A stretch of 64,000 bases of DNA from positions 2,367,486 through 2,431,485 of the forward strand of contig OZ241326.1 of NCBI GenBank assembly GCA_965199855.1, given 5' to 3'. The notes below the pieces were generated by a model. The model had not been told where the DNA came from. It made no database searches and saw only the letters and a list, made by a program, of their open reading frames with translations. Positions 36,371 through 61,040 of this stretch are shown here, piece by piece. Made by a program: the position numbers and the translations under genes. Numbering within the stretch: the stretch's first letter is position 1; each line of letters opens with the position of its first letter. Origin of the DNA: a bacterium. GTDB taxonomy: Bacteria > UBA8248.

Positions 36371-36399
36371 CCGGAGAGCGGCCCAGGCGGGACGCCGGG

Positions 36400-38520
36400 T
36401 CCGCCCCCGGCGTGAGGGCCTTCGGGCGGGGAGGCTCCGTCTCGATCCGTCTCGGTTCCCGGCCCCCGTCGGGGCGCAAGTGCGGGCGGATGCGCGCAAA
36501 CGCCGCGGCCTTGCGAAATGACCTCTCCGGGAGCCTCTTTTTCGCACAATCCTTTTATTTTCAATGACTTGATATTTTTTCCGCGCTCCGAAGGGTCTTG
36601 AATTTGTCGAATAAAGGCGCGAATTTGCGGGATAAAGGCGTGAATTTGTCGGATTTTGTCGAAAATAGGATTGTTTTCATCATGGCGCGGACGACGCGCG
36701 AACGCCGCGCCTGAAACGCGCAGGGGCGCCCCCTCCTCGGCGCCGCCCCACAACTCCCGAGCCGCCCGTCGCCGGACGACAACCCCCGGATTCCGCAATC
36801 CTTCCTTCTCATCGGAATTGACGACGCGGGAACGGCGCGGGGCGACAAACGCCCTGACCCGCGCCCACGCCTTCGTCATCATTCGTATTCCGAAACCCAT
36901 GCGTTCGCCTCCTCCTTCTCGCGGCGGATTCTCGCGCATTCAGGGGAAAGCCCGACAGGCGCAAATGCGGGCAAATGCGCAATCGATTCCGAATGGGCGG
37001 AAGGATTCTCCCGATGCGGGGAGAGACGCGGGCGGACAACCACAGGGGGTTGTCCCTACGGGGCCGGATGGCGTGATTCACCCGTAGGGGACGCATATAT
37101 GTGTCCCGCGCCGTTCCCGTTTGTGGCGCGGGCGGTTCTCGAACCGCCCCTACGGGGTTTTCGCGCGGCGGCGGGACGGGAATCTGGCGAAGGACAACCA
37201 CGGGGGTTGTCCCTACGGGCCAAGGCATCGCCAACCCACAACGGGGCGCAAGAATGCGCCCCCTACGGGAATCGGATGGCGTGATTCGATTGTAGGGGCG
37301 GTTCGCGAACCGCCCGTTTGGGGATGGTTGCCTATGGGTGATGATGGGGCGTAGGGGCGGCCCCTCCCCGGGGCCGCCCCACAATTCGGGAACCGCCCGT
37401 TTTGAAGGAAGACAATCAAAACCCTGGATTCCGGCCTTCGCCGGAATGACGGCGGAATGAGGACGCGGTGCGGACAACCACAGGGGGTTGTCCCTACGGC
37501 GGGGCGCATGAATGCGCCCCCTACGGCGAGGGTTTCCCCTCCGGCGCGCGCCGCCGCAAAACCCGTCATTCCGGCGAAGGCCGGAATCCAGAACCGGGGC
37601 GCGCGGCGGCAAACGGGCGTTCCCGGTCAATCCATGCGCGGGTTCATGGTTCCGTAGGGGCGGCTCGCGATTGGCGGGGCGGGTCGTTCACGAACGACCC
37701 CTACGGGATTGTCGCGCGGCGGCGGGACGGGAATCCGGCGAAAGACAACCCCCCGTGGTTCGCTACGGAGGGCGAGCGCGGTTCGCCTCCGCAGGGGCGG
37801 CCCCTTCCCGGGGCCGCCCCACAATTCGTGAACCGCCCGTTTTGAAGGAAGACGATTAAAACCCTGGATTCCGGCCTTCGCCGGAATGACGGCCGGGGAT
37901 GCCCCTTACGGCGGGGAACGCGGGGTTCATGGTTCCGTAGATGAAACGCGAGAGCGTTTCCATTCATGCGTCCCGCGCCGTTTCCGTTGATTCGATGCGG
38001 GCGGTTCTCGAACCGCCCCTACGGGGTTTTCATCCGGCGGAATGAGGACGCGGTGCGGACAACCACAGGGGGTTGTCCCTACGATTTGATCCGCGTTATC
38101 GCCGGGCCCGCAACGGGCGCAAGAATGCGTCCCCTACGAAACTGTCGCCGCCCTCGCCTTTGTAGGGGACGCATATATGCGTCCCGCGCCGTTTTCCATC
38201 AATGGCGACGCGGGCGGTTCGCGAACCGCCCCTACGGGGTGGGTCGTCTATGGATGACGACGACGGGCCGCCCGTTTTGACGGGAAGACAATCAAACCTC
38301 CGGATTCCGGCCTTCGCCGGAATGACGGCCGGGGATTCCCCCTACGGCGGGGAACGCGGGGTTTGTGACTTCGCAGGGGCGCCCCCTCCCCGGGGCCGCC
38401 CCGCAATTCGGGAACCGCCCGTTGGGGAGCGGCCAGCCTCGCCGGGTTCCGCAATCCCTCCGCCCCGTCGGGGAATCTCTCCTCCTTCGGGCGGGACGGC
38501 TCCTCACGCCAGCCTTCTCA
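36400..38520. repeat. large cluster of REP/BIME-like mosaic palindromic repeats (GTAG/CTAC-headed palindromes of at least 6 unit types)
   Basis: Units recur many times here and at four other loci, each flanked by gtagg/cctac. Examples: ggacaaccacagggggttgtccctacgg, cggttcgcgaaccgcccctacgg, ggcgcatgaatgcgccccctacgg, attccggccttcgccggaatgacgg, ggcggcccctccccggggccgcc, ggattccgcaatccctccgcc. Confidence 0.85.
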
Positions 38521-39397
38521 CCCCCGGGAATTCCTCCTCGACGCGCAGGTCGCGCTCGTCGTGGCCGGCGAAGAGGAGGCCGGGGGAGGCCGCCATGTCC
38601 TTCACGGCGTCCAGGGCGCGCAGGGCGTCGTCCACGTGGACGTGGACGCCCGGCGGAATCATCGACTCGAAGCTGCGGTAGAGACAGGCCGCGTCCACCG
38701 CCAGCGCCGCCCAGCCCCCCTTCGCCCGGAAGCGGACGACCTGGAGGCCGGGCGTGTGCCCGCCCACCCGGTGGAGGCGGACGCCGTCGGCGATTTCCGC
38801 CTCGCCGTCCACGAGCTCCAGGCGGCCCGCCTCCAGCAGCCGCTCGGCTTCCGCCAGATCGCCCAGAAAATGGTTGAGGAAGTGGTATGCGCCCGCGTCG
38901 CTCCGCCAGAAGTCGAGCTCGCGCCTCTGGAGCCAGAACCGCGCGGAGGAGAACAGCCGGGGCGAGGCGAAATGATCCCAGTGCAGGTGGCTCACGACGA
39001 GCCGCTCCACCTCCGAGGGTCTGAGTCCGAAATGCGCGAGAAGCTCCCGCTGGGAGCGGTAGCCCTCGTAGTCGGGATTGCGCGCCCGCTGCGCCTCCTC
39101 GCCGAAGCCGGTGTCCACCACCACGGGCGCGCCGCCCCCCTCGGGCATGAGCAGCCAGAAGAAGTAGGGCAGCCGCCGCGTCCGCCCCGACTCGCTCAGA
39201 TACAGCAGCCAGGAGGCGTCGCACCGACGCCAGCCCTGGCACAGGGCGTAGAGCCGCCAGGTCGCCTCGCGCAAGATGCGGTCCTCCCCCTTTTGTTGTC
39301 CGCGCCCGCCGATTATGCCATTATTTTCGAGGACGCGAACTTCTACGGCCCGGACAACCGCGAACCACCCCCGAAGGGCGCCTGTCTTGGACAACAT
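38504..39397 (-). CDS. MBL-fold metallo-hydrolase (AHL-lactonase-like)
   Basis: HLHWDH (HxHxDH) zinc motif in VVSHLHWDHFAS. The N-terminal start is uncertain; the annotated Met of the track ORF would overlap mrpA. Confidence 0.7.
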   Translation of the reverse strand: MLSKTGALRGWFAVVRAVEVRVLENNGIIGGRGQQKGEDRILREATWRLYALCQGWRRCDASWLLYLSESGRTRRLPYFFWLLMPEGGGAPVVVDTGFGEEAQRARNPDYEGYRSQRELLAHFGLRPSEVERLVVSHLHWDHFASPRLFSSARFWLQRRELDFWRSDAGAYHFLNHFLGDLAEAERLLEAGRLELVDGEAEIADGVRLHRVGGHTPGLQVVRFRAKGGWAALAVDAACLYRSFESMIPPGVHVHVDDALRALDAVKDMAASPGLLFAGHDERDLRVEEEFPGVRRLA

Positions 39398-41732
39398 CCT
39401 CATCGCCGTGTTCTTCCCGTTTCTGGCGGCGCTCATCGTCCCCCGGTTCGCCGCGCGATTCCGCCGGCGCGCCGCGTGGTTCGCCATGGCGGCGCCCCTC
39501 GCAAGCCTCGGGGCGCTGCTCTCCCTCTACGGCGAATGGGCGGCGGGGGGCGGGAAGACCCTCGTCCGCCCCCTCTCCTGGGTGCCGGCGGCGAACGTGG
39601 AAGTCTCCTTCATGACGGACGGCCTGAGCCTCATGTGGGGCTTTCTGGTGGCGGGCATGGGCGCGCTCATCGTCCTCTATTCGCATTGGTATCTCCCCGA
39701 AGACGAGGCGCTCGGGCGCTACTACGGCTTTCTGCTCGCCTTCATGGGGTCGATGCTCGGGGTGGTGTTCTCGGATCACCTGCTCTCGCTCTTCATCTTC
39801 TGGGAGCTGACGAGCGTCACCTCGTTCTTCCTCATCGGCTTCTGGTCGGAGCGCGGCGCCTCGAACTACGGCGCGGCCAAGGCGATTCTCATCACCGGAA
39901 GCGGGGGGCTCGCCATGCTGGGGGGCTTCCTGCTCCTGGGCGAGGCGGCGGGCGAGTGGCGGCTCTCGCGGCTCATCCTCACGCCCGACGCGGCCGCGAA
40001 GGTCTCCCTGGGCGTCTTCCTGCTCATCATCCTGGGGGCGGCGACCAAGAGCGCGCAGTGGCCCTTCCACATCTGGCTGCCGAACGCCATGGAGGCGCCC
40101 ACGCCCATCAGCGCCTTCCTGCACTCGGCGACGATGGTGAAGGCGGGGGTCTATCTGCTCTCGCGCTTCTACCCGATTCTGGGGGCGCACCCCGCCTGGG
40201 GCTACGTCGTGACGGGCTTCGGCATGACGACGATGATCGCGGGCGGCCTGCTCTCCCTGCGCGCCCATGACCTCAAGGCCATCCTCGCCTACGGGACGAT
40301 CAGCCAGCTGGGCCTCCTCGTCACCTTCCTGGGCTACGGGGGGCGGGGCGCCGTCGTGGGCGCGACGCTCCACCTCTACAACCACGCGGCGGCGAAGGCG
40401 GCGATGTTCATGACGGTGGGCGTCATCGACCACGAGGCGGGCACGCGCGACGCGCGGCTGCTGGGGAACCTGCGGAAGCTCATGCCGAAAACCCACCTCC
40501 TCGCGCTCCTCGCCGCGCTCAGCCTCATCGGCGTCCCGCCCCTGGGCGGCTTCATCACCAAGGAGATGCTCTACGAGGCGAGCCTGCGCCCCGGAGGCCC
40601 GGGCGCGTGGGGCTGGTTCTGGCCCTGGCTCACCGTTCTGGCGGGCGCGTTCACCGCGCTCTATCACCTGCGCTTTCTGGGCGAGCCCTTCTGGCGGGCG
40701 GCCGAGGGGGAGGCGCCGAAGCGCCCGCACGACCCGCCCTGGGGGATGCTCGCCGCCCCCGCCGCCCTCGCGCTCCTCGCGCTCGCCTTCGGCCTGGCGC
40801 CGTGGATCATCCAGGACGCCCTCGTCGCGCCGGCGGCGGAGGCGACCCTGGGCGGAGGCGCGCGGCTCGACCTCCGCCTGGGTCTCTGGCACGGGGTGAA
40901 CGCGCCCCTGCTCATGTCTGTCCTCACCATGGCGCTGGGCACCGCGCTCTACTTCGGCTTCGCGCGCGTGAAGGCGCTGCTCGACGCCTCGGCGCGCGCG
41001 TGGGGGAGCGCCCCCGCTCCCGACAGAATATACGACGCCTGCATCGGCTGGATGCGCGGCGGGGCGCGGGAGATCCTCCTCCTCCTCCAGGACGGGAACC
41101 TGAGAAGATACATGCGCTGGACGATGGCGGCCCCCGCCGTCCTCGTCCTGGGCGTCGTCTGGCCGATGCGCTGGGGGGAGAGCGTCTTTCCCCGGACGCT
41201 CGAGGGCGTCTCGCCCCTCCTCGTCGTGATCGCGGCGATGATCGCGGCCTCCGCCCTCGCCACGGCGCTCTTCCGGCGGCGCATCCCGGCGATTCTCTCC
41301 CTCGGCGTGATGGGCTATTCCATCTCGGGGCTGTATCTGCTCCTCAAGGCGCCGGATCTGGCGCTCACCCAGATCATGGTCGAATCGGCCTCGGTCGCGC
41401 TGTTCCTGCTCGTGTTCCGGCGCCTGCCCGAGCTCGAACCCGTCCCCTCCTCCCCCGCCAGAAAGGCGCGGGACTGGGGAATCGCCGCCGCCCTGGGCGC
41501 CTTCACGGCGCTGGGCATGGCCGCCGCCATGAACGCGCACCACTTCCGGACGATCGCGGACTACTTCATGCGCACGAGCAAGCCGGTCGCCGGCTTCAAG
41601 AACGTGGTGAACGCGATCATCGTCGACTACCGCGGCTACGACACGCTGGGGGAGATTACCGTGCTCGTCATCGCGGGCATCGCCATCTACGCCCTCACGC
41701 GGCTGACGGGGGGGGTTCGATGGGATCACTGA
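39383..41732 (+). CDS. mrpA: Na+/H+ antiporter subunit MrpA/MnhA (with fused MrpB-like domain)
   Basis: NuoL-like multi-TM protein ([28 protein letters not shown]). Start uncertain (TTG 39383 proposed); the track ORF begins upstream in a GC-rich leader. Confidence 0.8.
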
Positions 41733-42157
41733 TTCTCCAGACGGTCGCGCCCGTCGTCCTCCACCTGACGCTCCTGTTCTCGCTCTTTCTGCTCCTCTAC
41801 GGCCACAACCAGCCGGGGGGCGGCTTCATCGCGGGGCTGATGACGGCGGTGGGCGTCATCCTCCAGTGGGTGGCGGTGGGCGCGGAGGAGGGCCGGCGGC
41901 GCTTCCACTGGCCCTACGAGACGATTTTCCTGCTCGGGCTGGCGCTCTCCACCCTCACGGGCCTGTGGGGCTATCTCAAGGGGGCGTATCTCAAAAGCTC
42001 GATCTACCGCTTCGTCCTGCCGTTCATCGGCGAGGCGGAGCTGTTCACCGCGTTTCTGTTCGACGTAGGAGTCTATGGCGTGGTGGTCGGGGTGGTGATG
42101 TCCATCCTCACCAACCTGTGCCCGCCGCCGGAGGGGACGAACCCCCAGGGGCGGTGA
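41720..42157 (+). CDS. mrpB: Na+/H+ antiporter subunit MrpB/MnhB
   Basis: The ATG at 41720 overlaps the mrpA stop; 145-aa membrane protein ([40 protein letters not shown]). Confidence 0.75.
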
Positions 42158-42228
42158 CGCCCGCGGGGGGCGGAGCTTCCGGCGTCCGCCCGCCCCGCCG
42201 GACGAGAAGAAGCGGAGGAGGAAGGGCC

Positions 42229-42579
42229 ATGGTCTGGACGCTGGCGGCGACGATAGGCGCGCTGGTCGCGGTCGCCTCCTATCTCATCATGCAGCGCAGA
42301 ATCATCCAGGTCGTGCTGGGCATGTCGGTGCTCAGCCACGCCGCGAACCTGATGATCGTCGCCTCCGGCTGGGTGGGGGACGGAAAAGCCCCCATCGTCC
42401 CCAAGAAGGAGGGCTTCCTCGACCCGTTCCTCTACGTGGACCCCCTGCCCCAGGCCATGGTGCTGACCGCCATCGTCATCAGCCTCGCGGTGACGGCGTT
42501 CCTGCTCGTCCTCGCGCTCTTCGCCTACCGCAGGTTCGGGACGGACGACATCGACAAAATCAGGAGGCTCAGGGGATGA
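42229..42579 (+). CDS. mrpC: Na+/H+ antiporter subunit MrpC/MnhC (NuoK-like)
   Basis: MVWTLAATIGALVAVASYLIMQRRIIQVVLGMSVLSHAANLMIV. Confidence 0.8.
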   Translation: MVWTLAATIGALVAVASYLIMQRRIIQVVLGMSVLSHAANLMIVASGWVGDGKAPIVPKKEGFLDPFLYVDPLPQAMVLTAIVISLAVTAFLLVLALFAYRRFGTDDIDKIRRLRG

Positions 42580-44051
42580 GCGCCCTCTTCCCCCTGCTCG
42601 TCGTCTGGCCGCTCGCCACGGGCGTCGTTCTCTTCCTCGTCCGCAAAAGGCGCGCCCTCCAGGAGAGCCTGAGCCTCCTCTCGCTGCTGGCGAACCTGAT
42701 GCTGGCCGTCGCGCTCCTGAGCGCCACGGCGGACGGGACGATATTCGTCCACAGGATGGGGCTGTGGCCCTTCCCCTACGCCATCGTTCTCGCCGCCGAC
42801 CGGCTCGCCGCCACGCTCCTGTGCCTCTCCGCCTCCATCGTGGGGGCGTGCGCCGTGTTCGCCGGAAGCTACCTCACCGACGAGCAGCGCAGGGAGGCCT
42901 TCAGCCCCCTGCTGCATTTTCTCCTGATGGGGATGCAGGGCTGCTTCATCACGGGCGATCTGTTCAACCTGTTCGTCTTCTTCGAGGTCATGCTCATGGC
43001 CACCTACGCGCTGCTCGGCTTCCACTACAGCCTCGACCAGCTCGAGATGGCCTTCAAATACGTCTGCCTGAACCTCATCGCCTCGGCCCTGTTCCTGATC
43101 GGCGTCTCGCTGCTCTACGCCCAGACGGGCACGGTGAACATGGCGGACCTCGCCGGGAAAATCGCGCTCCTGGGCCCCACGCCCCTCGTCGTGGCGACCG
43201 CCCTCGTCTTCATCTTCACGTTCAGCGTCAAGGCGGCCATCTTCCCCATGCACCTGTGGCTGCCCTCGGCGCATTCGATATCGCCCACCCCCGTCAGCGC
43301 CATCCTGGCGGGCGCGCTCGTCAAGGTGGGCCTCTACGCCGTCATCCGGTGCGCCACGCTCATCTTCCCGGCCGCGTTCCTGGAGCTCCAGCCGGGCCTC
43401 ATCGCCCTCGGGCTGTGCACCATCGCCATGGGCGCGCTCGGCACCCTCTCGCAGACGAGCCTGAAGCGCATCCTCGCCTACAGCACCATCAACCAGCTCG
43501 GCTACATCGCCTTCGCGGTCGCCCTGCTCTCGCAGGCGGGGCTGGCGGCGGCGGTCTTCTACATCGCCGCCCACGCCTACCTGAAAAGCGCGTTGCTGCT
43601 GGGGGCGGGCCTCAGCCAGAAGCTCACCGGCACGGTGGACCTCGAGGAGATGGGCGGCATGATGGGCAAGGCGCCCTTCGCCAGCCTCCTGATGCTCGTG
43701 GGCTTCCTCTCCCTGGCGGGCTTCCCGCCCTTCGCGGGCTTCTTCGCCAAGCTCTTCGTTCTGCAGGCGGGGTTCGCGCAGGGGGCGACCCTCGCGACGG
43801 GCGTCGCCCTGGGGTTCGGCGTCATATCGCTCTACTACAACTTCACGACCTATCAGCGCTACGCCTGGGGAACGGGCGGAGGCGAGGTCGCCGCGGCGTC
43901 TCCCGCCCTCTACGGGGCCGCGGCCTTTCTCTCCGCCTTCGCGGTCATCTTCGGGGCGGGCGCGTTCTGGCTCTTCGAGTGGGCGCAGCTCGTGGCCGCC
44001 CAGATCACGAGGCCGGAGCTCTACGTCGCCGCCATGCGGCAGGCCGGATAG
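42576..44051 (+). CDS. mrpD: Na+/H+ antiporter subunit MrpD/MnhD (NuoN/M-like)
   Basis: 491-aa multi-TM protein with AIFPMHLWLPSAHS; its start overlaps the mrpC stop. Confidence 0.85.
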   Translation: MSALFPLLVVWPLATGVVLFLVRKRRALQESLSLLSLLANLMLAVALLSATADGTIFVHRMGLWPFPYAIVLAADRLAATLLCLSASIVGACAVFAGSYLTDEQRREAFSPLLHFLLMGMQGCFITGDLFNLFVFFEVMLMATYALLGFHYSLDQLEMAFKYVCLNLIASALFLIGVSLLYAQTGTVNMADLAGKIALLGPTPLVVATALVFIFTFSVKAAIFPMHLWLPSAHSISPTPVSAILAGALVKVGLYAVIRCATLIFPAAFLELQPGLIALGLCTIAMGALGTLSQTSLKRILAYSTINQLGYIAFAVALLSQAGLAAAVFYIAAHAYLKSALLLGAGLSQKLTGTVDLEEMGGMMGKAPFASLLMLVGFLSLAGFPPFAGFFAKLFVLQAGFAQGATLATGVALGFGVISLYYNFTTYQRYAWGTGGGEVAAASPALYGAAAFLSAFAVIFGAGAFWLFEWAQLVAAQITRPELYVAAMRQAG

Positions 44052-44062
44052 GAGAACAGCGG

Positions 44063-44536
44063 ATGCCGCTCGCCGCCCTCGCCCTCGTCATCGCCGCCCT
44101 GTGGATCTTCCTTCACGGCAGCGCCACGCCCGGGCGCTTCTTCGTGGGCCTCGTCATGGCCGCCCTCATCATCGGCTTTCTGAGAAAATCCTGCTACGAG
44201 GAGCGGACGTTCCTGCGGCTCGGCAGCTACGCCCGATACCTGAGAAGCTTCGCCTGGGAGCTCCTCGCGGCGAATCTGCAGGTTCTGAGAATCGTCCTAA
44301 GCCCCCGGCTGTCGATTCGCCCGGGCATCATCTCCTACCGGACGGTCTGCAGGACGCCCCTGGGGGTGACGATGCTGGCCAACTCCATCACCCTCACCCC
44401 CGGAACGCTGAGCGTGGACGTGTCCGAGGATCACGCGACGATCTTCGTCCACACCCTGGACATCGACCACCCCGACGAGGTCGCCGCCGGCATCCGGGAG
44501 GGGCTGGAGCGCCCCATCGCGGGAGCGGTGGAATGA
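44063..44536 (+). CDS. mrpE: Na+/H+ antiporter subunit MrpE/MnhE
   Basis: MPLAALALVIAALWIFLHGSATPGRFFVGLVMAALIIGFL...TLTPGTLSVDV. Confidence 0.75.
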   Translation: MPLAALALVIAALWIFLHGSATPGRFFVGLVMAALIIGFLRKSCYEERTFLRLGSYARYLRSFAWELLAANLQVLRIVLSPRLSIRPGIISYRTVCRTPLGVTMLANSITLTPGTLSVDVSEDHATIFVHTLDIDHPDEVAAGIREGLERPIAGAVE

Positions 44537-44802
44537 TCGCCGCCGCCGTCCAGATCAGCCTCGTCATGCTGGGCCTCTCGGTGGCGCTGGCGTTCGTCCG
44601 CCTCGTCAAGGGCCCCACGACCTCCGACCGCGTCGTGGCCGCCGACGCCATCGCCACGAACGTGCTGGGCGTCATCGCCCTCTACGCGATACAGACGGGC
44701 AACGGCCTGTTCATCATCGCCGCCCTCGCCCTGGCGATTCTGAGCTTCGTGGGGACGACGGCGTACGCGAAGTTCCTGGAGAGGGGGAGAATCATTGAGT
44801 GA
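44533..44802 (+). CDS. mrpF: Na+/H+ antiporter subunit MrpF/MnhF
   Basis: MIAAAVQISLVMLGLSVALAFVRLVKGPTTSDRVVAADAIATNV; overlaps the stop of mrpE. Confidence 0.75.
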   Translation: MIAAAVQISLVMLGLSVALAFVRLVKGPTTSDRVVAADAIATNVLGVIALYAIQTGNGLFIIAALALAILSFVGTTAYAKFLERGRIIE

Positions 44803-45178: not shown

Positions 45179-45196
45179 AAAAGCGCGGCGAGGCGC

Positions 45197-46045: not shown

Positions 46046-46237
46046 GGAGGGCGGAGCGCGCGCCGGGCATGGTAAGTTGCCCCGGGAGGGGCGGCAAGCG
46101 GGCTGCGCCTCCTGTTAGACAAGGCGGACGGACGGGGGCGGGATGGCGAAGCTCATGGACGGCGCGGGCGATATGGCGTCCCTTCCGGGCTCGCTCGACG
46201 GCGGGCCTCTCCTGAAAATCGAACGGGAGGAGAAGGC

Positions 46238-47785: not shown

Positions 47786-47788
47786 GGG

Positions 47789-51076: not shown

Positions 51077-51084
51077 GAGGGCGC

Positions 51085-52326: not shown

Positions 52327-52358
52327 TCGCTCTCACCCGAACGCGGGAGGGGGACGCT

Positions 52359-53165
52359 CTACAGGATGGCGACGGGGCGGACGGGCGAGCCGGTGCCGCC
52401 GCGTATCTTGAGCGGCAGGCAGACGAAGAGGAACTCGCGCGCCCGCGCCCGGCTCAGCTCCTCCAGCATCGCCACCTCGAGCAGGTGGACGCCGCGCTCC
52501 ACGAGCAGATGGCAGTGCACCGGCAGGGAGGGGGCGGGCAGAACCTCGACCGCGAAGTTGTCGCTCCCCGCCATGAAGACGCCCGCGTCGGAGAGCCACC
52601 GCGCGGCGTCCAGGTCGATTCCGGGGACGCCTCCCTTCTGGAAGTAATAGTCCCGGCCCGGCCAGTGGCGCATGTGGCCGGTGCGAATCAGGACGACGTC
52701 GCCCTCCTCCACCCGCGCGCCCTGGGCGCGGGCGGTCGCCTCGAGCTCCGCCTTCGTTATGGGGCGGCCCGCCTCGAGGACGTCCTTCTTGAGGTGCGCC
52801 GCCGCGTCCAGCATCACCCCGCGCCTGACGACGGGCGCCACGCTCTCGATTCCGTGGACTCTCAGCCCCTCCGTCTTGCTCTGGGAGGCGGCGGCGTCCG
52901 CCCCGCCGTGAAGCTTCATCTCCCGCGAGACGTGGCCCAGGGCGTCGATGTGGGTTCCCGTGTGGCCGGTGCAGAAGATCGCGTCCACCGCCGCGCACGC
53001 CCCGTCCGCATACATGAAGTCGCCGTGCTCCCGGATCATCGAATACCCGAAGGGGCCGTGGAGCGGCACGTGGGGCATTCCGGGGAAAAGCTCCACCCCC
53101 AGGTCGAACACCCTGCCGCCGCGCGCGATGGCGCGCAGGTCTTCCATGTCCATCGCTTCCTCCAT
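52359..53165 (-). CDS. cyclase-family protein (kynurenine-formamidase-like)
   Basis: HTGTHIDALGH metal-binding motif. Confidence 0.75.
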   Translation of the reverse strand: MEEAMDMEDLRAIARGGRVFDLGVELFPGMPHVPLHGPFGYSMIREHGDFMYADGACAAVDAIFCTGHTGTHIDALGHVSREMKLHGGADAAASQSKTEGLRVHGIESVAPVVRRGVMLDAAAHLKKDVLEAGRPITKAELEATARAQGARVEEGDVVLIRTGHMRHWPGRDYYFQKGGVPGIDLDAARWLSDAGVFMAGSDNFAVEVLPAPSLPVHCHLLVERGVHLLEVAMLEELSRARAREFLFVCLPLKIRGGTGSPVRPVAIL

Positions 53166-53292
53166 CGGGCGTTCGGGCGCCGGAAGCCCCGGCTTCGGTT
53201 TTCGTCATTGTATCTTTGCGCCCCGCCCCCCGACAAGGTAAAGAGGGCGGGAGAGAAGAAGCCCTCGCTGGACTTTCCGGGATCGGCGGCGC

Positions 53293-53712
53293 ATGAATTT
53301 CTCTGCATACGTTCATCCGGCCTTTCAGATCGCCACGCTCTCGCTGTGTCTGCTCACTCTGGCGAACGGCCTGCGGGTCAGGCGCGCCCGGCGGGGGAGG
53401 CTGTCCGGCAGGGCGGGAATCGCCCGCTTCCACGTGAGGCTCGGGCGGTGGCTCGCCGCTTTTTTCTCGACGGGCTACGCGCTCGGCCTGGGCGGGATGC
53501 GCTTCGCCCTGGAGGAGCCGCTTTACGAGACGGCGCACGGCTACTTCGCCACCCTCGCCCTGGGCCTTCTGTGGACGACGGCCTGGCTGGGGCGCAGGCT
53601 GCGAAAGGCTCCGGGCAGGGACGATCTGCGGCAGATTCACGCCTTCTGCGGCTTCCTCGCCGTCTTCGTCTCCCTGTTCGTCTCGTTTCTGGGGATGCGG
53701 CTGCTCCCCTGA
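53293..53712 (+). CDS. DUF4079-like integral membrane protein
   Basis: 139 aa, four predicted TM segments. Confidence 0.5.
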   Translation: MNFSAYVHPAFQIATLSLCLLTLANGLRVRRARRGRLSGRAGIARFHVRLGRWLAAFFSTGYALGLGGMRFALEEPLYETAHGYFATLALGLLWTTAWLGRRLRKAPGRDDLRQIHAFCGFLAVFVSLFVSFLGMRLLP

Positions 53713-53731
53713 CGCCCGGAATTCCGCTAGA

Positions 53732-54940
53732 ATGGAGGCGCCGCCCGGTCTCGGCTGCGCCCCGCCTCCTTTCGCGTCCCCCGGCGAGGCGAAGCCATCC
53801 CGCGAGGGGGAGCGCCCTTTGCGACCCGAAACCGAAAAGCGCGCGCCGAAGCCCTCCTCCGGGCGAGGCGGAATCCCTGGGGGAAAGCCGGGGCTTCTCC
53901 CCGCGCTCGCGCTTCTCGCCGCGGCGCTCTGGGCCGCGGCCCCGGCCCGGGCGGCGAGCCCCCCGGCGCGAAACCCCTGCGCGGTCAATCCCCCCGCGGC
54001 GAATCCATCCGGCGGAAACCCCTGCGCGCCCTCAAGAAGCCCGCGCCCCGAAGCCGCCGGGGGAGGAAACCCCTGCGCGCCCCGGAATCCCCGCGCCGGA
54101 GACGCCGGCGCGAAGGCGGGGACGAATCCGCAGGGCGGCAGGCTTTTCGATCCCTTCGCCGACGACGCGGGGCGGGCGGGCGGCGAAAAACCCCCTCCGC
54201 CGCCTCCGTCGCCGGGCGGGGGCGTCCAGTGGGGGGAGAGCCGGGCGGGCGTCGCGCGGCCGCGCTACCTCTTCACCCAGCGGCCCGACGCCAGCGTGCG
54301 CGACGCCGTCGCGCGCGGCAGGCGGGCGTTCAGGCGCGCGGGTTGCGTGGGTTGCCATCCCCGGGGGCGCACCATCTACGGCCACGCGGCGGACGTGACG
54401 GGCGCGACGCATCCGTTTCCCATCCCCACCCTCATCGGCGCGGCGGAGCACTTTCCGCGCCTGGGCCCGGCGGGACGGGCGCTCAGCGTCGGGCAGTTCA
54501 ACGACTTCTGCGCCACGACCTTCCTGGGCGAGCCGCCCATGGACCCCTATTCGCAGAAATACAAGGACCTGGAAGCCTACGTGGTCTCGCTCTCTCCCGA
54601 ACGCTACGAGCGGATGCTCGCCTGGGAGGCGAAGCGCAAGGCGCTCGCGCGGGCCATGCGGGGGACGCCGGGACCGGGAGCGGGCGGCGGCGCTTCGACG
54701 CCTTCTTCCGGCGGGGGAGAGAAGCCCGCCGCGCCGACCGCGCGAATCCCCGGCGGGGGCGGAGGGAAACCGGTCGGGGGAAACCCCTGCGCGCCCTCGA
54801 ATCCGCGCGCGGGGAAGCCCGGCGCCGCCCCAAGCGCCCCCGCCGGGGTCAACCCTTGCGCCCCCCGAAATCCATGCGCGGCGAAAAATCCCTGCGCGAT
54901 TCCGAACGCGCGCGCGAAAAACCCCTGCGCGAAGCCGTAG
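53732..54940 (+). CDS. secreted mono-haem c-type cytochrome domain protein flanked by tandem 'G-NPCA-P' repeats
   Basis: Signal-like LLPALALLAAALWAAAPARA; single CxxCH (RAGCVGCHPRG); at least 9 NPCA motifs (NPCAVNPP, GGNPCAPS, GGGNPCAPRNPRAG, GGNPCAPSNPRAG, VNPCAPRNPCAAKNPCAIPNARAKNPCAKP). The N-terminal start is uncertain. Confidence 0.55.
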   Translation: MEAPPGLGCAPPPFASPGEAKPSREGERPLRPETEKRAPKPSSGRGGIPGGKPGLLPALALLAAALWAAAPARAASPPARNPCAVNPPAANPSGGNPCAPSRSPRPEAAGGGNPCAPRNPRAGDAGAKAGTNPQGGRLFDPFADDAGRAGGEKPPPPPPSPGGGVQWGESRAGVARPRYLFTQRPDASVRDAVARGRRAFRRAGCVGCHPRGRTIYGHAADVTGATHPFPIPTLIGAAEHFPRLGPAGRALSVGQFNDFCATTFLGEPPMDPYSQKYKDLEAYVVSLSPERYERMLAWEAKRKALARAMRGTPGPGAGGGASTPSSGGGEKPAAPTARIPGGGGGKPVGGNPCAPSNPRAGKPGAAPSAPAGVNPCAPRNPCAAKNPCAIPNARAKNPCAKP

Positions 54941-54959
54941 GGCAGGCGCCTCCTGTCGT

Positions 54960-55520
54960 TGTCCTTCTTGAATAAGAAACTGTAGGGGGACAAGCCGCAG
55001 CTTGTCCTCCCTGCGCAAAATCAAGGCGCGGCCGCAGGGCCGCATTCATGCGCTTCGTTCGAGGGCCGGCGGTGAAGACGCCCCGGCCTCCCGCAGGGGG
55101 CGTTCGCGAACGCCCCGCCGCCTGCGATGCGAATCCTTCCCAAAAACGGGCGGCCGCAGGAGTCGCCCCTACGGAACGTCCCCCACGGGGGACCATCCCA
55201 AACGGGCGGTTCGCGAATTGTGGGGCGGCCCCGGGGAGGGGTCGCCCCTACGGAAACCTGAAAACCCCGCCCCCGCGCCAACGGGGACGCGCCCCGCCGT
55301 AGAGGCAACCCCCGTGGCTGTCCTTCGCTGGGTTCCCGTCCCGCCGCCGCGCGAAAATCCCGTAGAGGGCGTTCGAGAACGCCCCGCCCGGCTCCGGCTT
55401 CCGGCGAAGGCCGGAATCCAGGGGGTTGGTTTTCTTCCACGCAAACCCTGCGAAGGCGAGTCGTCGGGAATGTAGGGGCAGCCCCGCGGCTGTCCTTCGC
55501 TGTCGGCATGGGCAGGCGCG
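54960..55520. repeat. REP/BIME-like palindromic repeat cluster
   Basis: Contains cggttcgcgaa, ggcggccccggggaggggtcgcccctacgg, attccggccttcgccgga and tgtaggggcagccccgcggctgtcc units. Confidence 0.8.
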
Positions 55521-55624
55521 GGGGGCCTGTCCCCGTGAGGCCCTTTGACGCCCTCCTTGCCGCGCCGCCTTCGCTCTGCTAGCGTTGCCGCGAATCCATT
55601 TCTCATCATCGGGAGGAGCGCGCG

Positions 55625-56146
55625 ATGGCGGAATTCACCGTGGCGAATTTCAGGGACGTCTCCGGGGGGCTCCAGGAGGGCCAGTTCGCCGTGGGCGAGC
55701 GGAAGAAGGCGAGCGGCCTGGCCGACCTCGACCCCATCTACGGGCAGCTGCTGGACATGCCGATCACGGTCACGCTCGGGCTCGTCGGCCCCGACGGGCG
55801 GGTGAACCTCACGCCCATGTGGTTCGACTACGAGGGCGACATGATTCTGGTGAACACCGCCGCGCACCGGGCGAAATGCGGATGGATACGCGCGAACCCG
55901 CGGCTCACCATCCTCCTCGTCAACCCCGAGAACCCCTACCACTGGATGAGCGTGAAGTGCGAGGTCGTGAACGAAATCCGCGAGGGGGAGCCGGGCGGGG
56001 AGCGGGCCGCCGAGCAGCTCGACCGCATCTGGACGAAATACACGGGGCAGGAGCCGCCCTACGCGCTGCGCGATCCCGTCATCGACGAGAAGCGCGTCCT
56101 CTTCGAGTGCCGCGTGGACAGAATCGCCACCTTCGGAAAGCCCTGA
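55625..56146 (+). CDS. PPOX-class F420/FMN-binding split-barrel protein
   Basis: 173 aa; ...RVNLTPMWFDYEGDMILVNTAAHRAKCGWIRANPRLTILLVNP. Confidence 0.65.
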   Translation: MAEFTVANFRDVSGGLQEGQFAVGERKKASGLADLDPIYGQLLDMPITVTLGLVGPDGRVNLTPMWFDYEGDMILVNTAAHRAKCGWIRANPRLTILLVNPENPYHWMSVKCEVVNEIREGEPGGERAAEQLDRIWTKYTGQEPPYALRDPVIDEKRVLFECRVDRIATFGKP

Positions 56147-56306
56147 GGCCGGGGGGCGCGCCGCTTCGCGTCATCGATGCGCGCGTCTCTTGCGGGAGGC
56201 GCGAAGCTGCGCGGCGCCGAAGCGATGGCGGGGAGGAATGGAAACGGCCTTTTCAACGTCTTCAGCGACCCCGAGTTTCCAAAACCCTGAATCTACCGTT
56301 GCGCTA

Positions 56307-56732
56307 TCAGAGTTCCCAAAGCTCCACATCAGACGGAATCATGTGGAAGCAGGCGCGTCTGAAATAGGAAAGCAGAGTCTCGCCCGTAGATTTCCTCACG
56401 CTCCGCTCAACGATAAATATCTTCCGATAAGCCTTGGGAGCCATGTGAAAATGGAACATGGCTTCCGCCCAGTTTTTCATCTTCGCGCTTGGAACATTCC
56501 CCCCTGCTGTCCAAGTGTGCGATTTGCATTCCACGATGATTTTGGGACGCTCTGATCCAAAATCGAACGTGTGCTCCTTCTTGTCCTTCTTGGCTCGTCC
56601 AAGCCCCACCGCCAATTTGAAGTTGGATTCCAAATCGAGGCCATGCTTGGCCAGCGCCCTCTTGGCCTTCTTCTCAAATTTCCGTCCGACATCCGCATTG
56701 CTGTTCGCGCCCTCGCGCTGATGATTCGCCAT
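56307..56732 (-). CDS. small PD-(D/E)xK nuclease-fold protein (Mrr-cat/restriction-endonuclease-like), low-GC gene
   Basis: 141 aa; HTFDFGSERPKIIVECKSHTW gives a D...E-x-K arrangement; local GC about 52% versus ~70% flanks. Confidence 0.5.
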   Translation of the reverse strand: MANHQREGANSNADVGRKFEKKAKRALAKHGLDLESNFKLAVGLGRAKKDKKEHTFDFGSERPKIIVECKSHTWTAGGNVPSAKMKNWAEAMFHFHMAPKAYRKIFIVERSVRKSTGETLLSYFRRACFHMIPSDVELWEL

Positions 56733-56744
56733 ATTCTTCCTCCT

Positions 56745-57872
56745 CTACCAGACGCAGCCGCGGGCGGCGACGGGAATGACGACCTCGAGGACGCCCTCCT
56801 CCGTCCCGCCGCGAATTCCATGATAGACGTCGTAGAGGTTGATGGTCGGGTCGCAGTGGCTGGGCTGGAACAGGAGCGTCTCGCCGATTTCGGGACGCCG
56901 GGCGGAGGGCGAGAGCGTCAGCACGCCGTGCTCGTCCGAGGCGCGCGCGTGCTCGGCGCCCTCGAGCTCCAGGCAGGGGGCGAGCCCGCTGTCCGAGGCG
57001 AGCGCCTTGTGGCCGGCGTCCACGACGGCGCGGTCGGACGAGGCGCTCACCACCGTCGTCAGCACGAACAGGGCGGGCCGGAAGTCGTCGTAGGCTTCGG
57101 AGTCCTCGCCGCCGATGCTGCGGTAGTGGGAGTCCATGAAGAGGTAGCTGCCCGCCTGGAGCTCGTTCAGAACGCACGCTTCCGCGTCCCAGCGCCAGGA
57201 GCCGGTGCCGCCGCCGCTTCTGATCTCCGTGGAAAGCCCGGCGGCGCGGAAGGCGGCTATGGTCTCCTCCATCAGCGCGATGGCGCGCGCATAGACCGCG
57301 CGCCGCTCGGCGAAGCCCTCCACGTGCTGCGCCGCGCCCTGATACGCCTGAATCCCCCGGAGCGCGAGCCCGGGCAGCCTCTCCACGCGCTCGGCCAGCT
57401 CGACGGCCGCCGCCCCCGGCGCGACCCCGCAGCGCCCCTGGCCTACGTCCACGTCCACGAGCGCGCCGATCTCCGCCCCCGCCTCCACGGCGGCCTCGGA
57501 GAGCATGGCCGCCCCCCGCGGGTGATCTACCACCGCCGCGATCCGCGCGTGGCGCGCAAGGGCGGCGAGGCGCCCGAGCTTCGAGGCGGCGGCGACCTCG
57601 CTGCTCACCAGCGCGTCCTCCACGCCGCCCGCCACCATCACCTCCGCCTCGCTCACCTTCTGGCAGCACACGCCCACCGCGCCCAGGGCGATCTGCTTTT
57701 TCGCCAGCCAGGGGCTCTTGTGCGTCTTGGCGTGGGCGCGCAGGCGGACGCCCGTGCCCTCCAGGCGCGCCGCCATGCGCGCGAGGTTCTCCTCCATGGC
57801 GTCGAGGTCGATGAGCAGGGCGGGGGTTTCGAGCTCGCGCGCGGGCGTCCCGACCCTCTGGCTCGGTCGCAT
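56745..57872 (-). CDS. alanine-racemase-N-domain / DSD1-family PLP enzyme (D-serine deaminase or D-threonine aldolase-like)
   Basis: LLIDLDAMEENL...RAHAKTHKSPWLAKKQ (PLP-binding Lys); 375 aa. Confidence 0.75.
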   Translation of the reverse strand: MRPSQRVGTPARELETPALLIDLDAMEENLARMAARLEGTGVRLRAHAKTHKSPWLAKKQIALGAVGVCCQKVSEAEVMVAGGVEDALVSSEVAAASKLGRLAALARHARIAAVVDHPRGAAMLSEAAVEAGAEIGALVDVDVGQGRCGVAPGAAAVELAERVERLPGLALRGIQAYQGAAQHVEGFAERRAVYARAIALMEETIAAFRAAGLSTEIRSGGGTGSWRWDAEACVLNELQAGSYLFMDSHYRSIGGEDSEAYDDFRPALFVLTTVVSASSDRAVVDAGHKALASDSGLAPCLELEGAEHARASDEHGVLTLSPSARRPEIGETLLFQPSHCDPTINLYDVYHGIRGGTEEGVLEVVIPVAARGCVW

Positions 57873-58199
57873 GGAGAATTCTCCCCGGGGAAGGGGCGCG
57901 GCCCGAACCGCGGGACAACGGCGCGGGCCTCGGGCGCGAAAAGCGAAAGGGACGAATTCAGGGGATAATACCCCGGGGATCAGGCAAAGGGAAGCGCAGC
58001 CGGCGCCCCTCGCTCCATATCCGCAAGCCCGGCGTCAGCGCGAGGGTCTCGCTTCGCTCCCTGGCGAATTGTTTCCTCGCGTCCATGCTGCGAACATAAA
58101 AAAAGCCACCAAGGTCCGCGTCATCGAGAAACATCCTCAATGAGAGGCGTGGCGGCTACGTTGGAGAAAACGTATCCGCGCATCGCATTCACGTCAAGG

Positions 58200-58500
58200 T
58201 AAAAGCGAATCCGAAAAGGCGAGAGCATATCTGACGCGCGCTGAAGGATATTTCGCTTTTCATCGTCATTGCGGCGAAAGCCGCAATCCAGGACCGACGG
58301 GAAAACAAGGGATTCCGCAATCCCTCCGCCTGGTCGGGATTGACGCCGGAATGACGACGGGGGACGCGGGCTTTATGATTCGTAGGGGCGGTTCGGGAAC
58401 CGTCCGTTTTGGAACGGCAACCCCCGGATTCCGCAATCCCTCCGCCCTTCCGGGTAGGGTGGGACGACTTGCCCGGCGTCCCTTCCTGCCGCATGATGGG
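58200..58500. repeat. REP/BIME-like palindromic repeat cluster
   Basis: ggattccgcaatccctccgcc (x2), gacgccggaatgacgacg and tcgtaggggcggttcgggaaccg units. Confidence 0.75.
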
Positions 58501-58539
58501 GTGGTTTTGCGCCGCCCCGCTCGCGTTCGGAGGACTTTC

Positions 58540-59430
58540 ATGCGCACCAAGGCGGACGATCTCCTCGAGGGCGCCATCGACGTCCACGCCCACATCTTCC
58601 CGCAGGTGTTCGTCGAGGAGTCCGGGCGCGTGCTGGATCACGAATGGGCCGAACTCGCCCGCGACGCCGGGATGCGCGGCTTCGTGATGAAGAGCCACCT
58701 GTGGCCCACCATGGCGCAGGCGCGTATTCTGAACGAGGTCTATCCCGACGTCGCCGCCTTCGGCGCCATCGTCCTGAACGCGAACGTGGGCGGGCTTTCG
58801 CCCTTCGCGGCGGAGAGCGCGGTTCGCCTGGGCGCGAAGGTCATCTGGATGCCCACCTACTCCGCGGCGAACGACATCGCGGTCGGCGCCTACAGCGCGC
58901 GCATCGCGGAAGCCTACCGCCGGCCGCCCCCGGACGCGGGCCTCGCCGTCCTGGACGAGGACGGCGCGGTTTCGCCCGACGCCGAGGCCGTCCTCGAAAT
59001 CGCCCGTGACGCGAACGTCGCCGTGGCGACCGGCCATCTCTCGGCCGACGAGGGCGTCGCCCTCGCGCGGCGCGCCCGCGAGATCGGGCTGGAGAAGTTC
59101 ATCTTCACCCATCCGATCATCTTCATCGTGCGCGCGAGCGAGGCGCAGCTGCGCGAGGTGGCGGATATGGGCTACATCATCGAGTTCACCTGGATCTCCG
59201 CCTTTCCGATGTGGCGCGACCTCGACCCCTGGGAGGTGGCGCGAACCGCGCGCGCCCTGGGCCCCGAGCGCTGCGTGATGAGCACGGACGCGCAGCTCGA
59301 CCTCAACCCCCCGCCGCCCGAGATGCTGCGGATGTTCATCGCCACCATGCTGCGCCTGGGGTTCGGCGAGGACGAGATTCGCTGGATGACGCAGCGAAAC
59401 CCCGCCCGGCTGATGGGCCTGGAAGGATGA
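58540..59430 (+). CDS. amidohydrolase-2 family TIM-barrel metal-dependent hydrolase
   Basis: AIDVHAHIFPQ... N-terminal His pair; start at MRTKADD with RBS ggagga. The track ORF begins 63 codons upstream inside a repeat. Confidence 0.75.
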   Translation: MRTKADDLLEGAIDVHAHIFPQVFVEESGRVLDHEWAELARDAGMRGFVMKSHLWPTMAQARILNEVYPDVAAFGAIVLNANVGGLSPFAAESAVRLGAKVIWMPTYSAANDIAVGAYSARIAEAYRRPPPDAGLAVLDEDGAVSPDAEAVLEIARDANVAVATGHLSADEGVALARRAREIGLEKFIFTHPIIFIVRASEAQLREVADMGYIIEFTWISAFPMWRDLDPWEVARTARALGPERCVMSTDAQLDLNPPPPEMLRMFIATMLRLGFGEDEIRWMTQRNPARLMGLEG

Positions 59431-59933
59431 GAGGCGCGCGCGGCGGCGCCCGCTCCGCCGGCTTCCGGGGAGGAGCGGGCCTCCGCGGGACGGGGCTGAT
59501 TCTCTGCGCGGCGGCCCTCCTTCTCCTCGCGCCTGCGGCCTCGGGCGCGGAGACGCTCGTCATCGCCCTCACCCAGACGGGCTGCCAGTTCCTCGAACCC
59601 GAAGGCGGGGATCGCGGCTTCCGGCCCGAAAGGGCGGCCGACTGCCGGCGCGTCAACGCCGAGACCGGGGCGCGGCGCCTCGCCGCCGCCCGGACGATGA
59701 CGCTCCGGCCCGGCCGCTACGTCTTCCGGGTGACGAACCGGAGCGTGCCCTACGAGCTCGGCTTCTACCTGCGCGGGGCGGGCGTCGGACGCCTCACGCT
59801 GCCCAAAGTCTCGGGCGGCGGCATCGCGCGCGGGCGGACGCGCGACTACGCCGTCACCCTGACGGAGGGCGAGTATCGCTACTCCTGCCCCCTGAACCCG
59901 ACGCCCGACTACAGACTGCGCGTGAGAAACTAG
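59427..59933 (+). CDS. secreted hypothetical protein (168 aa)
   Basis: Signal peptide ...LILCAAALLLLAPAASGAE; ATG overlaps the upstream stop (GATGA). It corresponds to the C-terminal part of track ORF 59211..59933. Confidence 0.5.
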   Translation: MRGARGGARSAGFRGGAGLRGTGLILCAAALLLLAPAASGAETLVIALTQTGCQFLEPEGGDRGFRPERAADCRRVNAETGARRLAAARTMTLRPGRYVFRVTNRSVPYELGFYLRGAGVGRLTLPKVSGGGIARGRTRDYAVTLTEGEYRYSCPLNPTPDYRLRVRN

Positions 59934-59939
59934 CCGCGG

Positions 59940-61040
59940 CGCGCCGGGACGCATGAATGCGCCGCGCGTTCGTAGATGGAATCGCCTTCGCATTCGTAGG
60001 GACAGGTCGCGACCTGCCCCTACACAAAACATGAACGCCCCGCCGCCTCCGATGCGAACGCCTCTTGAACACGGGCGGCCATTCCTTGCGGAACCGTCCC
60101 CGCGCCCCGGTTCTGGATTCCGGCCTTCGCCGGAATGACGGGCTTTGAGTCGCGCCCGCCGGGATCGTAGGGACGCCCCCCTGTGGTTGTCCTTCCGCCG
60201 TAGGGGCGGTTCGTGAACCGCCCACATCGCCATCAATACAAAACGGCGCGGGACGCATGAATGCGTCCCCTACAAAACCGTCGCACCCTCCCCGCCGTAG
60301 GGGGCGCATTCTTGCGCCCCGCCCTGTGGTTGTCCGCCCGCGTTCTTCCTCCGTCGGGACGATCCTTCCGCCCTGTCGGAATGGATCGCGCATTTGCCCG
60401 CATTTGCGCCTGTCGGGCCTTTCCGCGAACGCGCGAGAATCCGCCGCGAGGGGGAGGCGGCGAGCATGGGTTTCGGGAAGCGGATGATGACGAAGGCGGG
60501 GGCGCGCGTCAGGGCGTTTTTCGCCCTCGGCCGTTCTCGCGTCGTCAATTCCGATGAAGAGGCAAGATTGCGGAATCCGGGGGTTGTCGTCCGGCGACGG
60601 GCGGCTCGGGAGCTGTGGGGCGGCCCCGGGGAGGGGCCACCCCTGCGCGTTTCAGGAGTGACGCGCGCGCGTCGTCCGCGTCATAATAAAGACGACGCTA
60701 TTTTCGACAAAATCCGACAAATTCACGGCTTTATCCCGCAAATTCGCGCCTTTTTTCGACAAATTCAAGACCCTTCAGGGCGCGGAAAAAACATCAATAC
60801 ATTGAAAATAAAAGGATTATGGGAATCAGGGGGCGCCGGGAGGGGGTATTTCGCAAGGCCGCGGCATTTGCGCGCATTTGCCCGCACCCGCGCTTCCCGC
60901 GCGCTGAGGCGCCGCCCGGCCAACCCCCCGCAGAGGCTGCTCTCCAGGAAGCGGCGGGCGCGGCGGCTTGCGGCTTTTCGCGAAAGGCGCGATGATGAGG
61001 CGTCCTTTTGGCGAACGGATTTTCCCTTGAACCCATGAAG
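59940..61040. repeat. REP/BIME-like repeat cluster including the inverted copy of the ~0.5-kb 36.42-36.94 kb segment
   Basis: The reverse complement of 36420-36935 aligns by eye to 60460-60990. Matching stretches include atgggtttcgg..gatgatgacgaaggcg..gtcagggcgttt..cgtcgtcaattccgatga..gattgcggaatccgggggttgtcgtccggcgacgggcggctcgggag..tattttcgacaaaatccgacaaattcacg. Confidence 0.8.

Follow-up and report, generated by a model that had tools for sequence, protein, structure and literature searches.

Two probable copies of a dispersed intergenic mosaic repeat form an inverted 0.5-kb pair in a high-GC bacterial chromosome

Dispersed intergenic elements of enterobacteria that are mosaics built on repetitive extragenic palindromes (REPs) are known as bacterial interspersed mosaic elements or BIMEs (PMC3333891, PMC2817692). 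In Neisseria, the small mobile Correia repeats (CREE/NEMIS) combine a site for the integration host factor (IHF) with a promoter (reviewed in PMC2229807). Here we have analyzed a pair of inverted 0.5-kb repeats, units L and R, in a stretch of 64,000 nucleotides from a bacterium of the lineage UBA8248 (assembly GCA_965199855.1, contig OZ241326.1, positions 2,367,486 to 2,431,485 of the forward strand). This whole stretch is called the window, and positions are counted from its first letter unless a contig is named. We consider it probable that L and R are paralogs from a dispersed family of non-coding, intergenic repeats of about 500 bp that is specific to this lineage, and that they do not delimit a mobile element.

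The likeness to BIMEs lies both in placement and in construction. The unit too is non-coding, dispersed and intergenic, is mostly found at 3' ends between convergent genes, and is a mosaic of GTAG-headed REP hairpins and other conserved motifs that varies by gain and loss of modules. The RIP or RIB elements are an IHF-binding subclass of the BIMEs, and a predicted IHF site, identified by its match to the consensus, is what the unit would have in common with them.

The inverted pair and its dispersed relatives

A repeat search of the window recovers the pair as three adjoining inverted matches, namely 36527-36902 versus 60464-60839 (376 nt, 88% identity), 36905-37024 versus 60344-60463 (120 nt, 85%) and 36474-36535 versus 60832-60893 (62 nt, 84%). 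In a gapped local alignment they merge, and 36470-37155 is paired with 60899-60198 (595 matches, 80 mismatches, 38 gap columns). The clean portion of this alignment pairs 36470-37045 with 60899-60324 at 86.7% identity over 573 columns, which gives a shared length of 575 bp; past ~37045 in unit L and 60323 in unit R, GC-rich, GTAG-headed REP-type palindromes begin in both copies. The core 20-mer GAATTTGTCGGATTTTGTCG occurs in the window only inside the two arms (expected number 0.00). The pair had been noticed before in a sequence-only reading, which was right about its size, its 85-90% identity, its opposite orientation and its AT-rich core; the arms exist where it saw them, at 36420-36940 and 60460-60990, with limits drawn about 50-140 bp outward of the true ones.

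Additional copies beyond the pair, which the same reading had named as the observation that would speak against it, were looked for and found. Gene callers often turn the spurious open reading frame (ORF) of the unit into a protein, and with this ORF as a probe 27 protein clusters of 54-84% identity were retrieved from a public protein collection. The DNA was read for five further copies with unrelated flanks, so that the family comprises at least seven loci including L and R. These five copies lie between a 1363-aa gene and RmuC, between an inositol phosphatase and an enoyl-CoA hydratase (ECH), between NMT1 and Band_7, between TrmE and a rhodanese-gyrA-gyrB-recF-dnaA block, and between ArsP/TruD and the same rhodanese-gyrA block; they are 79-89% identical to unit L over ~510-690 bp. 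Two of the further loci sit on ctg394336 of ERZ25070167, a circular relative of 3,033,334 bp. The 3.04-Mb genome of the window itself most likely holds at least three copies, namely L (its ORF being exactly the public protein P0007), R and a third one (P0013), as both proteins are recorded on a contig of one and the same length, 3,043,534 bp. An exhaustive profile search among 1.84 billion representative proteins gave only 18 matches, nearly all of them sequences that had already been found, plus a few more diverged copies (P0030, P0033, P0034), indicating that the family is confined to a narrow lineage. Collections of plasmids (PLSDB), phages and viruses contain no similarity to the unit. A metagenome scan with the three-repeat pattern described below returned no match, and a scan of genome contigs for three GAATTTG motifs at 21-bp spacing, a pattern that proved too loose, returned 120 irrelevant tandem-repeat loci, none with a unit. 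Since the repeat family is present elsewhere, the inverted pair formed by L and R is an ordinary consequence of dispersed repeats.

The segment between the arms measures 23.3 kb. It encodes, in order, an MBL-fold hydrolase, mrpA-G, an alpha/beta hydrolase, an M48-PDZ peptidase and a TPP enzyme, followed by two succinyl-CoA-ligase-like subunits, a cyclase, DUF4079, a PNPOx-like protein, a D-serine-dehydratase-like protein and DUF6282. Pfam and gene scans of the segment revealed no transposase, integrase, recombinase or invertase among these genes, and neither its GC content (0.69) nor its GC skew (-0.03 to -0.05) departs from the values of the left flank. On five strain contigs (L123-L127) that run across unit R, the genes on either side follow the order of the window. 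Two other contigs that come from the side of the SRAP gene (L121, L122) end inside unit L; such breaks of metagenome contigs inside the units are expected for repeats. The 23.3-kb segment is ordinary chromosome that happens to fall between two oppositely oriented copies, and it belongs to no mobile element. As to the contents listed for it earlier, the mrp operon (39276-45178) and the lower-GC M48 peptidase (46238-47446) are indeed present, a HicAB-like pair was not detected by Pfam, and a PD-(D/E)xK gene is plausible from its D..ExK-like sequence motif alone, with no match in Pfam or PADLOC.

Sequence is exchanged between copies of the family. The strain orthologue of unit R on contig L123 is 94% identical to unit R in its left block; its middle block matches unit R at only 47% and the copy at the ECH locus of another genome at 93%, a pattern of blocks that marks it as a gene-conversion mosaic. 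On contigs L154 and L155, a stretch of 10.2 kb that begins in the middle of a unit copy and runs through rhodanese-gyrA-gyrB-recF-dnaA is 98.4% identical. Beyond the unit the two contigs are unrelated, with TrmE-GidA-ParAB in one and ArsP-TruD in the other. The unit of L154 has a 155-bp internal deletion exactly at this junction. The break (L154 10230-10850; L155 10130-10900) results either from an origin-proximal rearrangement that broke within the unit or from a mis-join of the metagenome assembly. Because copies exchange sequence and a break lies inside one of them, the family is a plausible substrate for inversion; for the pair L and R none has been seen.

Anatomy of the unit

The organization of the unit was derived from family alignments of 14 copies for the invariance of motifs and of eight copies for flanks and REP context, with full copies measuring 463-502 bp. 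The parts follow a common order, consisting of the AT-rich core, a fast-changing REP-containing middle and a conserved right module, with a terminal repeat at both ends of the unit (Table 1). Identity among the paralogs is 94% in the core, 75% in the middle and 91% in the right module.

The terminal repeat is a direct one of 23 bp, GGCGCAARTGCGGGCRRATGCGC, located in unit L at 36473-36495 and 36958-36980 with 87% identity and a spacing of 485 bp. It is built of 10-bp phased GCAARTGCGS units or TGCGSGCA palindromes. Its motif has six matches in the window against 0.21 expected, all of them inside units L and R, and was met nowhere else, whether in the window or across 277 kb of related loci. 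Repeat analysis detected no terminal inverted repeats within the units, the left and right flanks of the eight aligned copies have no common repeat that would represent a target duplication (the boundaries are known to a few bp), and the end regions fold no better than shuffled sequence (z +0.6 to -0.9).

Within the core, the IHF consensus WATCAANNNNTTR is matched exactly by TATCAAGTCATTG, and by no other site of the 64-kb window. The consensus is exact in nine of the 14 copies, variation falling mostly on its first three N positions; three of the deviating copies differ at the W position and two are changed inside ATCAA or TTG. The motif GAATTTGYSG, which forms the phased 21-bp repeats, has seven matches in the window (0.61 expected), six of them inside the units, and the number of 21-bp repeats ranges from 1 to 3 among copies. 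A fourth half-site (TTTGTCG) coincides with the -35 hexamer of a putative promoter. Across the 14 copies this promoter-like site (TTGTCG, 16 nt, CATYAT) has an invariant -35 hexamer, a spacer without indels and invariant -10 positions 2 (A), 3 (T) and 6 (T). The units contain no exact DnaA box (TTWTNCACA). The variable middle block consists of REP-type modules that also occur elsewhere in the window.

With regard to its setting, the unit is placed after a co-directional gene in six of seven flanking contexts, and the next gene is convergent in five of the seven. REP hairpins of the same orientation are found on both sides of the unit in six of the eight aligned copies. Apart from the two arrays that adjoin the units, GTAG-headed REP arrays are present at 55.0-55.5, 58.2-58.45 and 62.5-63.1 kb. 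Palindromes of this kind (CGTAGGGGCGG...CCGCCCC) belong to several sub-families and fill the larger intergenic gaps of the window.

Table 1. Positions of the two units, their parts and the neighboring features in the window
Feature	Position	Strand	Remarks
Unit L	36470..37045	+	Left copy; family-level part ~36473-36985, similarity between L and R to 37045; nhmmer score 601.7
Unit R	60323..60899	-	Right, inverted copy; family-level part ~60385-60893; nhmmer score 623.9
First terminal direct repeat, unit L	36473..36503	+	Left terminal direct repeat
Second terminal direct repeat, unit L	36958..36985	+	Right terminal direct repeat GGCGCAAATGCGGGCAAATGCGC; invariant in 14 of 14 aligned copies
First terminal direct repeat, unit R	60864..60893	-	Terminal direct repeat
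Second terminal direct repeat, unit R	60385..60410	-	Terminal direct repeat
AT-rich core, unit L	36548..36683	+	39% GC in a genome of 68% GC
AT-rich core, unit R	60683..60818	-	Counterpart of the core of unit L
IHF-consensus site, unit L	36562..36574	-	TATCAAGTCATTG matching WATCAANNNNTTR
IHF-like site, unit R	60792..60804	+	CATCAATACATTG; one mismatch, at the W position
Three 21-bp phased direct repeats, unit L	36600..36672	+	GAATTTGYSG at 36600, 36621 and 36642; extra TTTGTCG half-site 10 bp downstream
Phased direct repeats, unit R	60694..60766	-	60757-60766, 60736-60745 and 60715-60724
Putative sigma-70-like promoter, unit L	36656..36683	+	-35 TTGTCG, 16-nt spacer, -10 CATCAT
Putative promoter, unit R	60683..60710	-	TTGTCG, 16 nt, TATTAT; 9 of 12 consensus matches
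Internal REP-type hairpin module, unit L	36719..36770	+	Variable or absent in other copies; 24-39 nt presence/absence
Internal REP-type hairpin module, unit R	60597..60648	-	From the repeat search
Spurious ORF through unit L	36256..36939	-	227 aa; publicly annotated from the ATG at 36900 as the 214-aa P0007
Spurious ORF through unit R	60394..61038	+	214 aa
REP-type array (GTAG-headed) beside unit L	37046..38450		Occupies, together with the unit, the 2.1 kb without genes from the SRAP gene to the MBL-fold gene
REP-type array beside unit R	59950..60322		From the repeat search
Enclosed ordinary chromosomal genes	38504..59933		Family searches and gene order conserved in L123-L127

Several other identities were tried for the unit or its parts and rejected. 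Terminal hairpins of IS200/IS605 or REP type are contradicted by ends that show no folding excess over shuffles. A sigma-54 promoter was discarded by eye, as on either strand the spacing deviates by one from GG-N10-GC. A CRISPR leader does not agree with adjoining repeats that are irregularly spaced and of the GTAG-headed REP type, and a sponge for CsrA/RsmA was dismissed with 6-8 GGA motifs against ~5 expected.

We propose that the unit would be a BIME/RIP-like mosaic element that is retained by the host for its AT-rich core. The core would act as a phased protein-binding platform for IHF and for a further protein that binds the direct repeats. As its motifs suggest, this platform may be coupled to a regulated sigma-70 promoter, which would direct a non-coding transcript into that part of the unit which contains the REPs. 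Selection on the core, together with gene conversion between copies, would keep the copies alike; as a pair, L and R would offer only ~0.5 kb of homology for a RecA-type inversion of the enclosed segment. Constraint on the core is visible in its high identity among paralogs, in the helical phasing of the repeats and in the consensus-shaped conservation of the IHF-like and promoter-like sites. It is rather doubtful that the core is the cis target of a dedicated DNA-binding protein, with the copies acting as chromosome-wide functional sites through the predicted IHF site, the 21-bp repeats and the TGCGSGCA palindromes that flank them with a 10-bp phase. Such sites may take one of two forms: a response-regulator-controlled family of non-coding RNA genes, or dispersed sites that resemble an origin, a centromere or a transfer origin, here in an uncultivated bacterium.

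Alternative explanations of the repeat pair

Three alternatives ascribe mobility or inversion to the arms or to the unit. A composite transposon or mobile island, of which the arms would be the ends and which would move as one 24.5-kb element, had been suggested in the sequence-only reading and is highly improbable. The inverted 0.5-kb arms do bracket a block with two lower-GC islets (46-48.4 kb and 56.2-56.75 kb), but they are non-coding, have no ORF with a Pfam match and show neither terminal inverted repeats within them nor target duplications, and the housekeeping cargo lacks a transposase or recombinase and equals its flanks in GC and skew. Moreover, the unit is found singly at five other loci, and the gene order across the right arm is kept in five strains. 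Alternatively, the pair might delimit an invertible segment and drive a recurrent 23-kb inversion via RecA or a site-specific enzyme, with two isomers in the population. As had been noted before, the pair is a possible substrate in principle. It offers 575 bp of ~87% identity in inverted orientation, family members exchange sequence, and two strains of 98.4% identity lose their synteny within another copy. Yet all five contigs that span unit R have the arrangement of the window, the GC skew of the segment agrees in sign with that of the left flank, no invertase or recombinase gene is located nearby and a divergence of 13% reduces the efficiency of RecA; we regard recurrent inversion as quite improbable. 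A somewhat unlikely account is that the unit is a non-autonomous transposable element with its transposase elsewhere, either MITE-like (a miniature inverted-repeat transposable element) or a cargo mobilised between direct REP hairpins by an IS200/IS605 or RAYT enzyme. Copies at multiple loci with unrelated flanks, a non-coding unit of ~0.5 kb, REP hairpins of the same orientation enclosing six of eight copies and direct terminal repeats, as at the ends of IS200/IS605 elements, are what such an element would present. On the other hand, terminal inverted repeats and target duplications are lacking, the end regions have no folding excess, the strains revealed neither an empty site nor a presence/absence polymorphism, and the plasmid, phage and viral collections hold nothing similar. 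The core is, in addition, far better conserved than the ends and the middle, which fits a function at the level of the host better than a decaying selfish element. From the earlier suggestion of two copies of a larger MITE-like unit, the dispersed unit is retained, as further copies occur elsewhere, while the MITE-like character is given up in view of the direct terminal repeats and the lack of a target duplication.

The remaining alternatives assign a product or a replication-, partition- or transfer-related role to the unit. That its long ORF (214-227 aa) is a real gene for a fast-evolving basic protein is hardly conceivable, even though it is open in many copies and publicly annotated as a gene, has a GGAGG-like motif 8-10 nt before its ATG and is affected among strains by three indels that are all multiples of 3 nt. 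When unit R was aligned with its orthologues from eight strain-level metagenome contigs, in which an identical pterin-4a dehydratase adjoins, the variable columns were spread evenly over the codon positions (27/33/33), indicating that the ORF is an accident of GC-rich DNA. The ORFs of the arms have no Pfam match even at E <= 1, they cross the 39%-GC core while genes mostly have a third-position GC of 75-95%, their C-termini are the translated flanks of each copy, and frameshifted copies exist. Among smaller ORFs, none keeps both frame and start codon across copies and none encodes a conserved short hydrophobic peptide; those that recur are basic or hydrophilic, or lose frame or start between copies. 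The units might instead be multi-copy small-RNA genes, each composed of a gene and its regulatory region, with the core promoter driving a functional non-coding RNA of ~300 nt. The conserved -35 and -10 hexamers with their fixed spacer, the 91% conservation of the right module and the lack of a consistent downstream partner gene would agree with this explanation, and phased upstream repeats together with an IHF-like site recall regulated small-RNA promoters such as that of rsmZ. We nevertheless give it a limited chance, as a terminator is missing, neither folding excess nor appreciable covariation emerged from copies whose high similarity makes this test weak, Rfam has no family that matches the unit at the gathering threshold or at E <= 10 beyond chance level, GGA motifs are not enriched and conservation is lowest where the putative transcript begins. 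Finally, the units could be cis sites similar to an origin, a centromere or an oriT and recognized by a protein of the Rep, ParR/ParB or relaxosome type whose gene lies elsewhere. Three phased 21-bp direct repeats beside an IHF-like site and an AT-rich tract, with a partial repeat overlapping the promoter as in pSC101-type iteron origins, are in line with such a role, but no rep, par or relaxase gene adjoins any of the seven loci, exact DnaA boxes are absent from the units, the chromosomal copies are many and vary from 1 to 3 in repeat number, and similarity to plasmids or phages is lacking, which makes this role very unlikely.

The preferred explanation of L and R as copies of a host-retained, BIME/RIP-like dispersed repeat has points against it as well. 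The unit (~500 bp) is ~5x larger than a classical BIME or RIP (~40-150 bp), and these known elements are without a 21-bp repeat array, of which the unit has three repeats. Taken alone, the IHF match is weak, as at least one match arises in 24% of window shuffles and five of the 14 copies carry one mismatch. Concerning function, there is no terminator-like site after the putative promoter, and the putative transcript folds no better than shuffles (z -0.7 and -1.7, with a third fold at z +0.6). The RNAalifold covariation term amounts to -0.51 with two compensatory pairs, both at the alignment edges, in a test that is weak for copies as similar as these. Concerning the spread of the copies, no autonomous partner element was found in the loci that were read, and strains showed no presence/absence polymorphism. 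The synteny break between L154 and L155 could be a mis-join at a repeat, and, as regards inversion isomers, the synteny check covers the right arm, the left junction being crossed by none of the strain contigs.

Surroundings, significance and comparison with known systems

Some neighboring regions of the window deserve mention in their own right. The stretch 46000-48400 has a lower GC content (0.60-0.62) and a strongly positive GC skew (+0.22); it contains the M48-PDZ peptidase gene (46238-47446) and two minus-strand ORFs (47519-47785 and 47789-48349), which are the pair formerly called HicAB-like and for which Pfam gave no confirmation. It is possibly a small acquired segment. A lower-GC islet at 56190-56750 (0.61) contains on its minus strand a 141-aa ORF (56307-56732) that has a D..ExK-like motif but matched nothing in Pfam or PADLOC. 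At the same site, in the interval between the PNPOx and D-serine-dehydratase-like genes, two strain contigs (L125 4008-5517 and L127 2008-3517) instead have a 201-aa ORF and an N6/N4 DNA methyltransferase, and the site is predicted to be a restriction/defence islet that varies across strains. Outside the arms, a low-GC island (21433-27716, 0.52-0.58 versus 0.68 for the genome) lies directly 3' of tRNA-Asn (21433-21507). It comprises a 660-aa ORF without a family match (21473-23455) and a 1425-aa DruE-like helicase (23439-27716; PADLOC DruE3/DruE1, E ~3e-154; Pfam DEAD, Helicase_C and MZB), and probably represents a defence island of the Druantia type III-like kind that was inserted at the tRNA gene.

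Matches of the core 20-mer in metagenomes (n = 18) were considered as homologues of the unit and rejected, because they have in common only short arrays of a 10-bp TGTCGGAWTT tandem repeat on unrelated contigs. These arrays (3-6 units) stand upstream of genes in contigs of 41-68% GC. Among the contigs around the matches (L133, L135, L137, L139, L141-L146, L148, L149), five share a conserved block just upstream of the array. The arrays, which contain the TTTGTCG motif of the unit, may be a widespread phased binding-site array.

The analysis removes a false lead: the mrp-containing 23 kb are not a mobile island, and nothing suggests a programmed inversion. It also has practical consequences, as 0.5-kb repeats embedded in REP arrays fragment metagenome assemblies, generate spurious "hypothetical proteins" in databases, exchange sequence between loci and probably seed rearrangements between strains. 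At least 27 public clusters of hypothetical proteins (84-371 aa; P0001-P0034) are translations of the repeat that run on into the flanking REP sequence. If the core is a real protein-binding or promoter module, the unit would be an example of a regulatory repeat maintained by its host in an uncultivated high-GC bacterium. If the copies are functional sites in either of the two forms considered above, they would represent a new kind of host-maintained regulatory repeat and not junk DNA.

Among the known systems, the Correia elements share with the unit a multi-copy intergenic occurrence, an IHF site (predicted in the unit), promoter-like hexamers and the property of being recombination hot spots. 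They differ in their size of 100-155 bp, their 26-bp terminal inverted repeats and their TA target duplication, whereas the unit has direct ends and no duplication. In the origin of pSC101, an AT-rich tract, an IHF site and three ~21-bp direct repeats two helical turns apart are followed by a partial repeat over the promoter. The unit has the same order of parts, but is without a rep gene, a DnaA box or similarity to plasmids in PLSDB, and occurs in many chromosomal copies with a variable repeat number. The LDR, hok/sok and Sib/QUAD sequences of E. coli are long chromosomal repeats that are type I toxin-antitoxin loci. They resemble the unit as seemingly non-coding stretches of ~500 bp with few repeats per genome; the unit, however, has no small hydrophobic ORF conserved across copies, and no antisense promoter pair is evident. 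Compared with the BIMEs, to which it has no sequence similarity, the unit is distinguished by its 130-bp AT-rich core with a promoter-like site and by its 23-bp direct terminal repeats. Among the bacterial interspersed mosaic repeats, the family represents a new member restricted to its lineage, with an unusually large and well-conserved AT-rich core.

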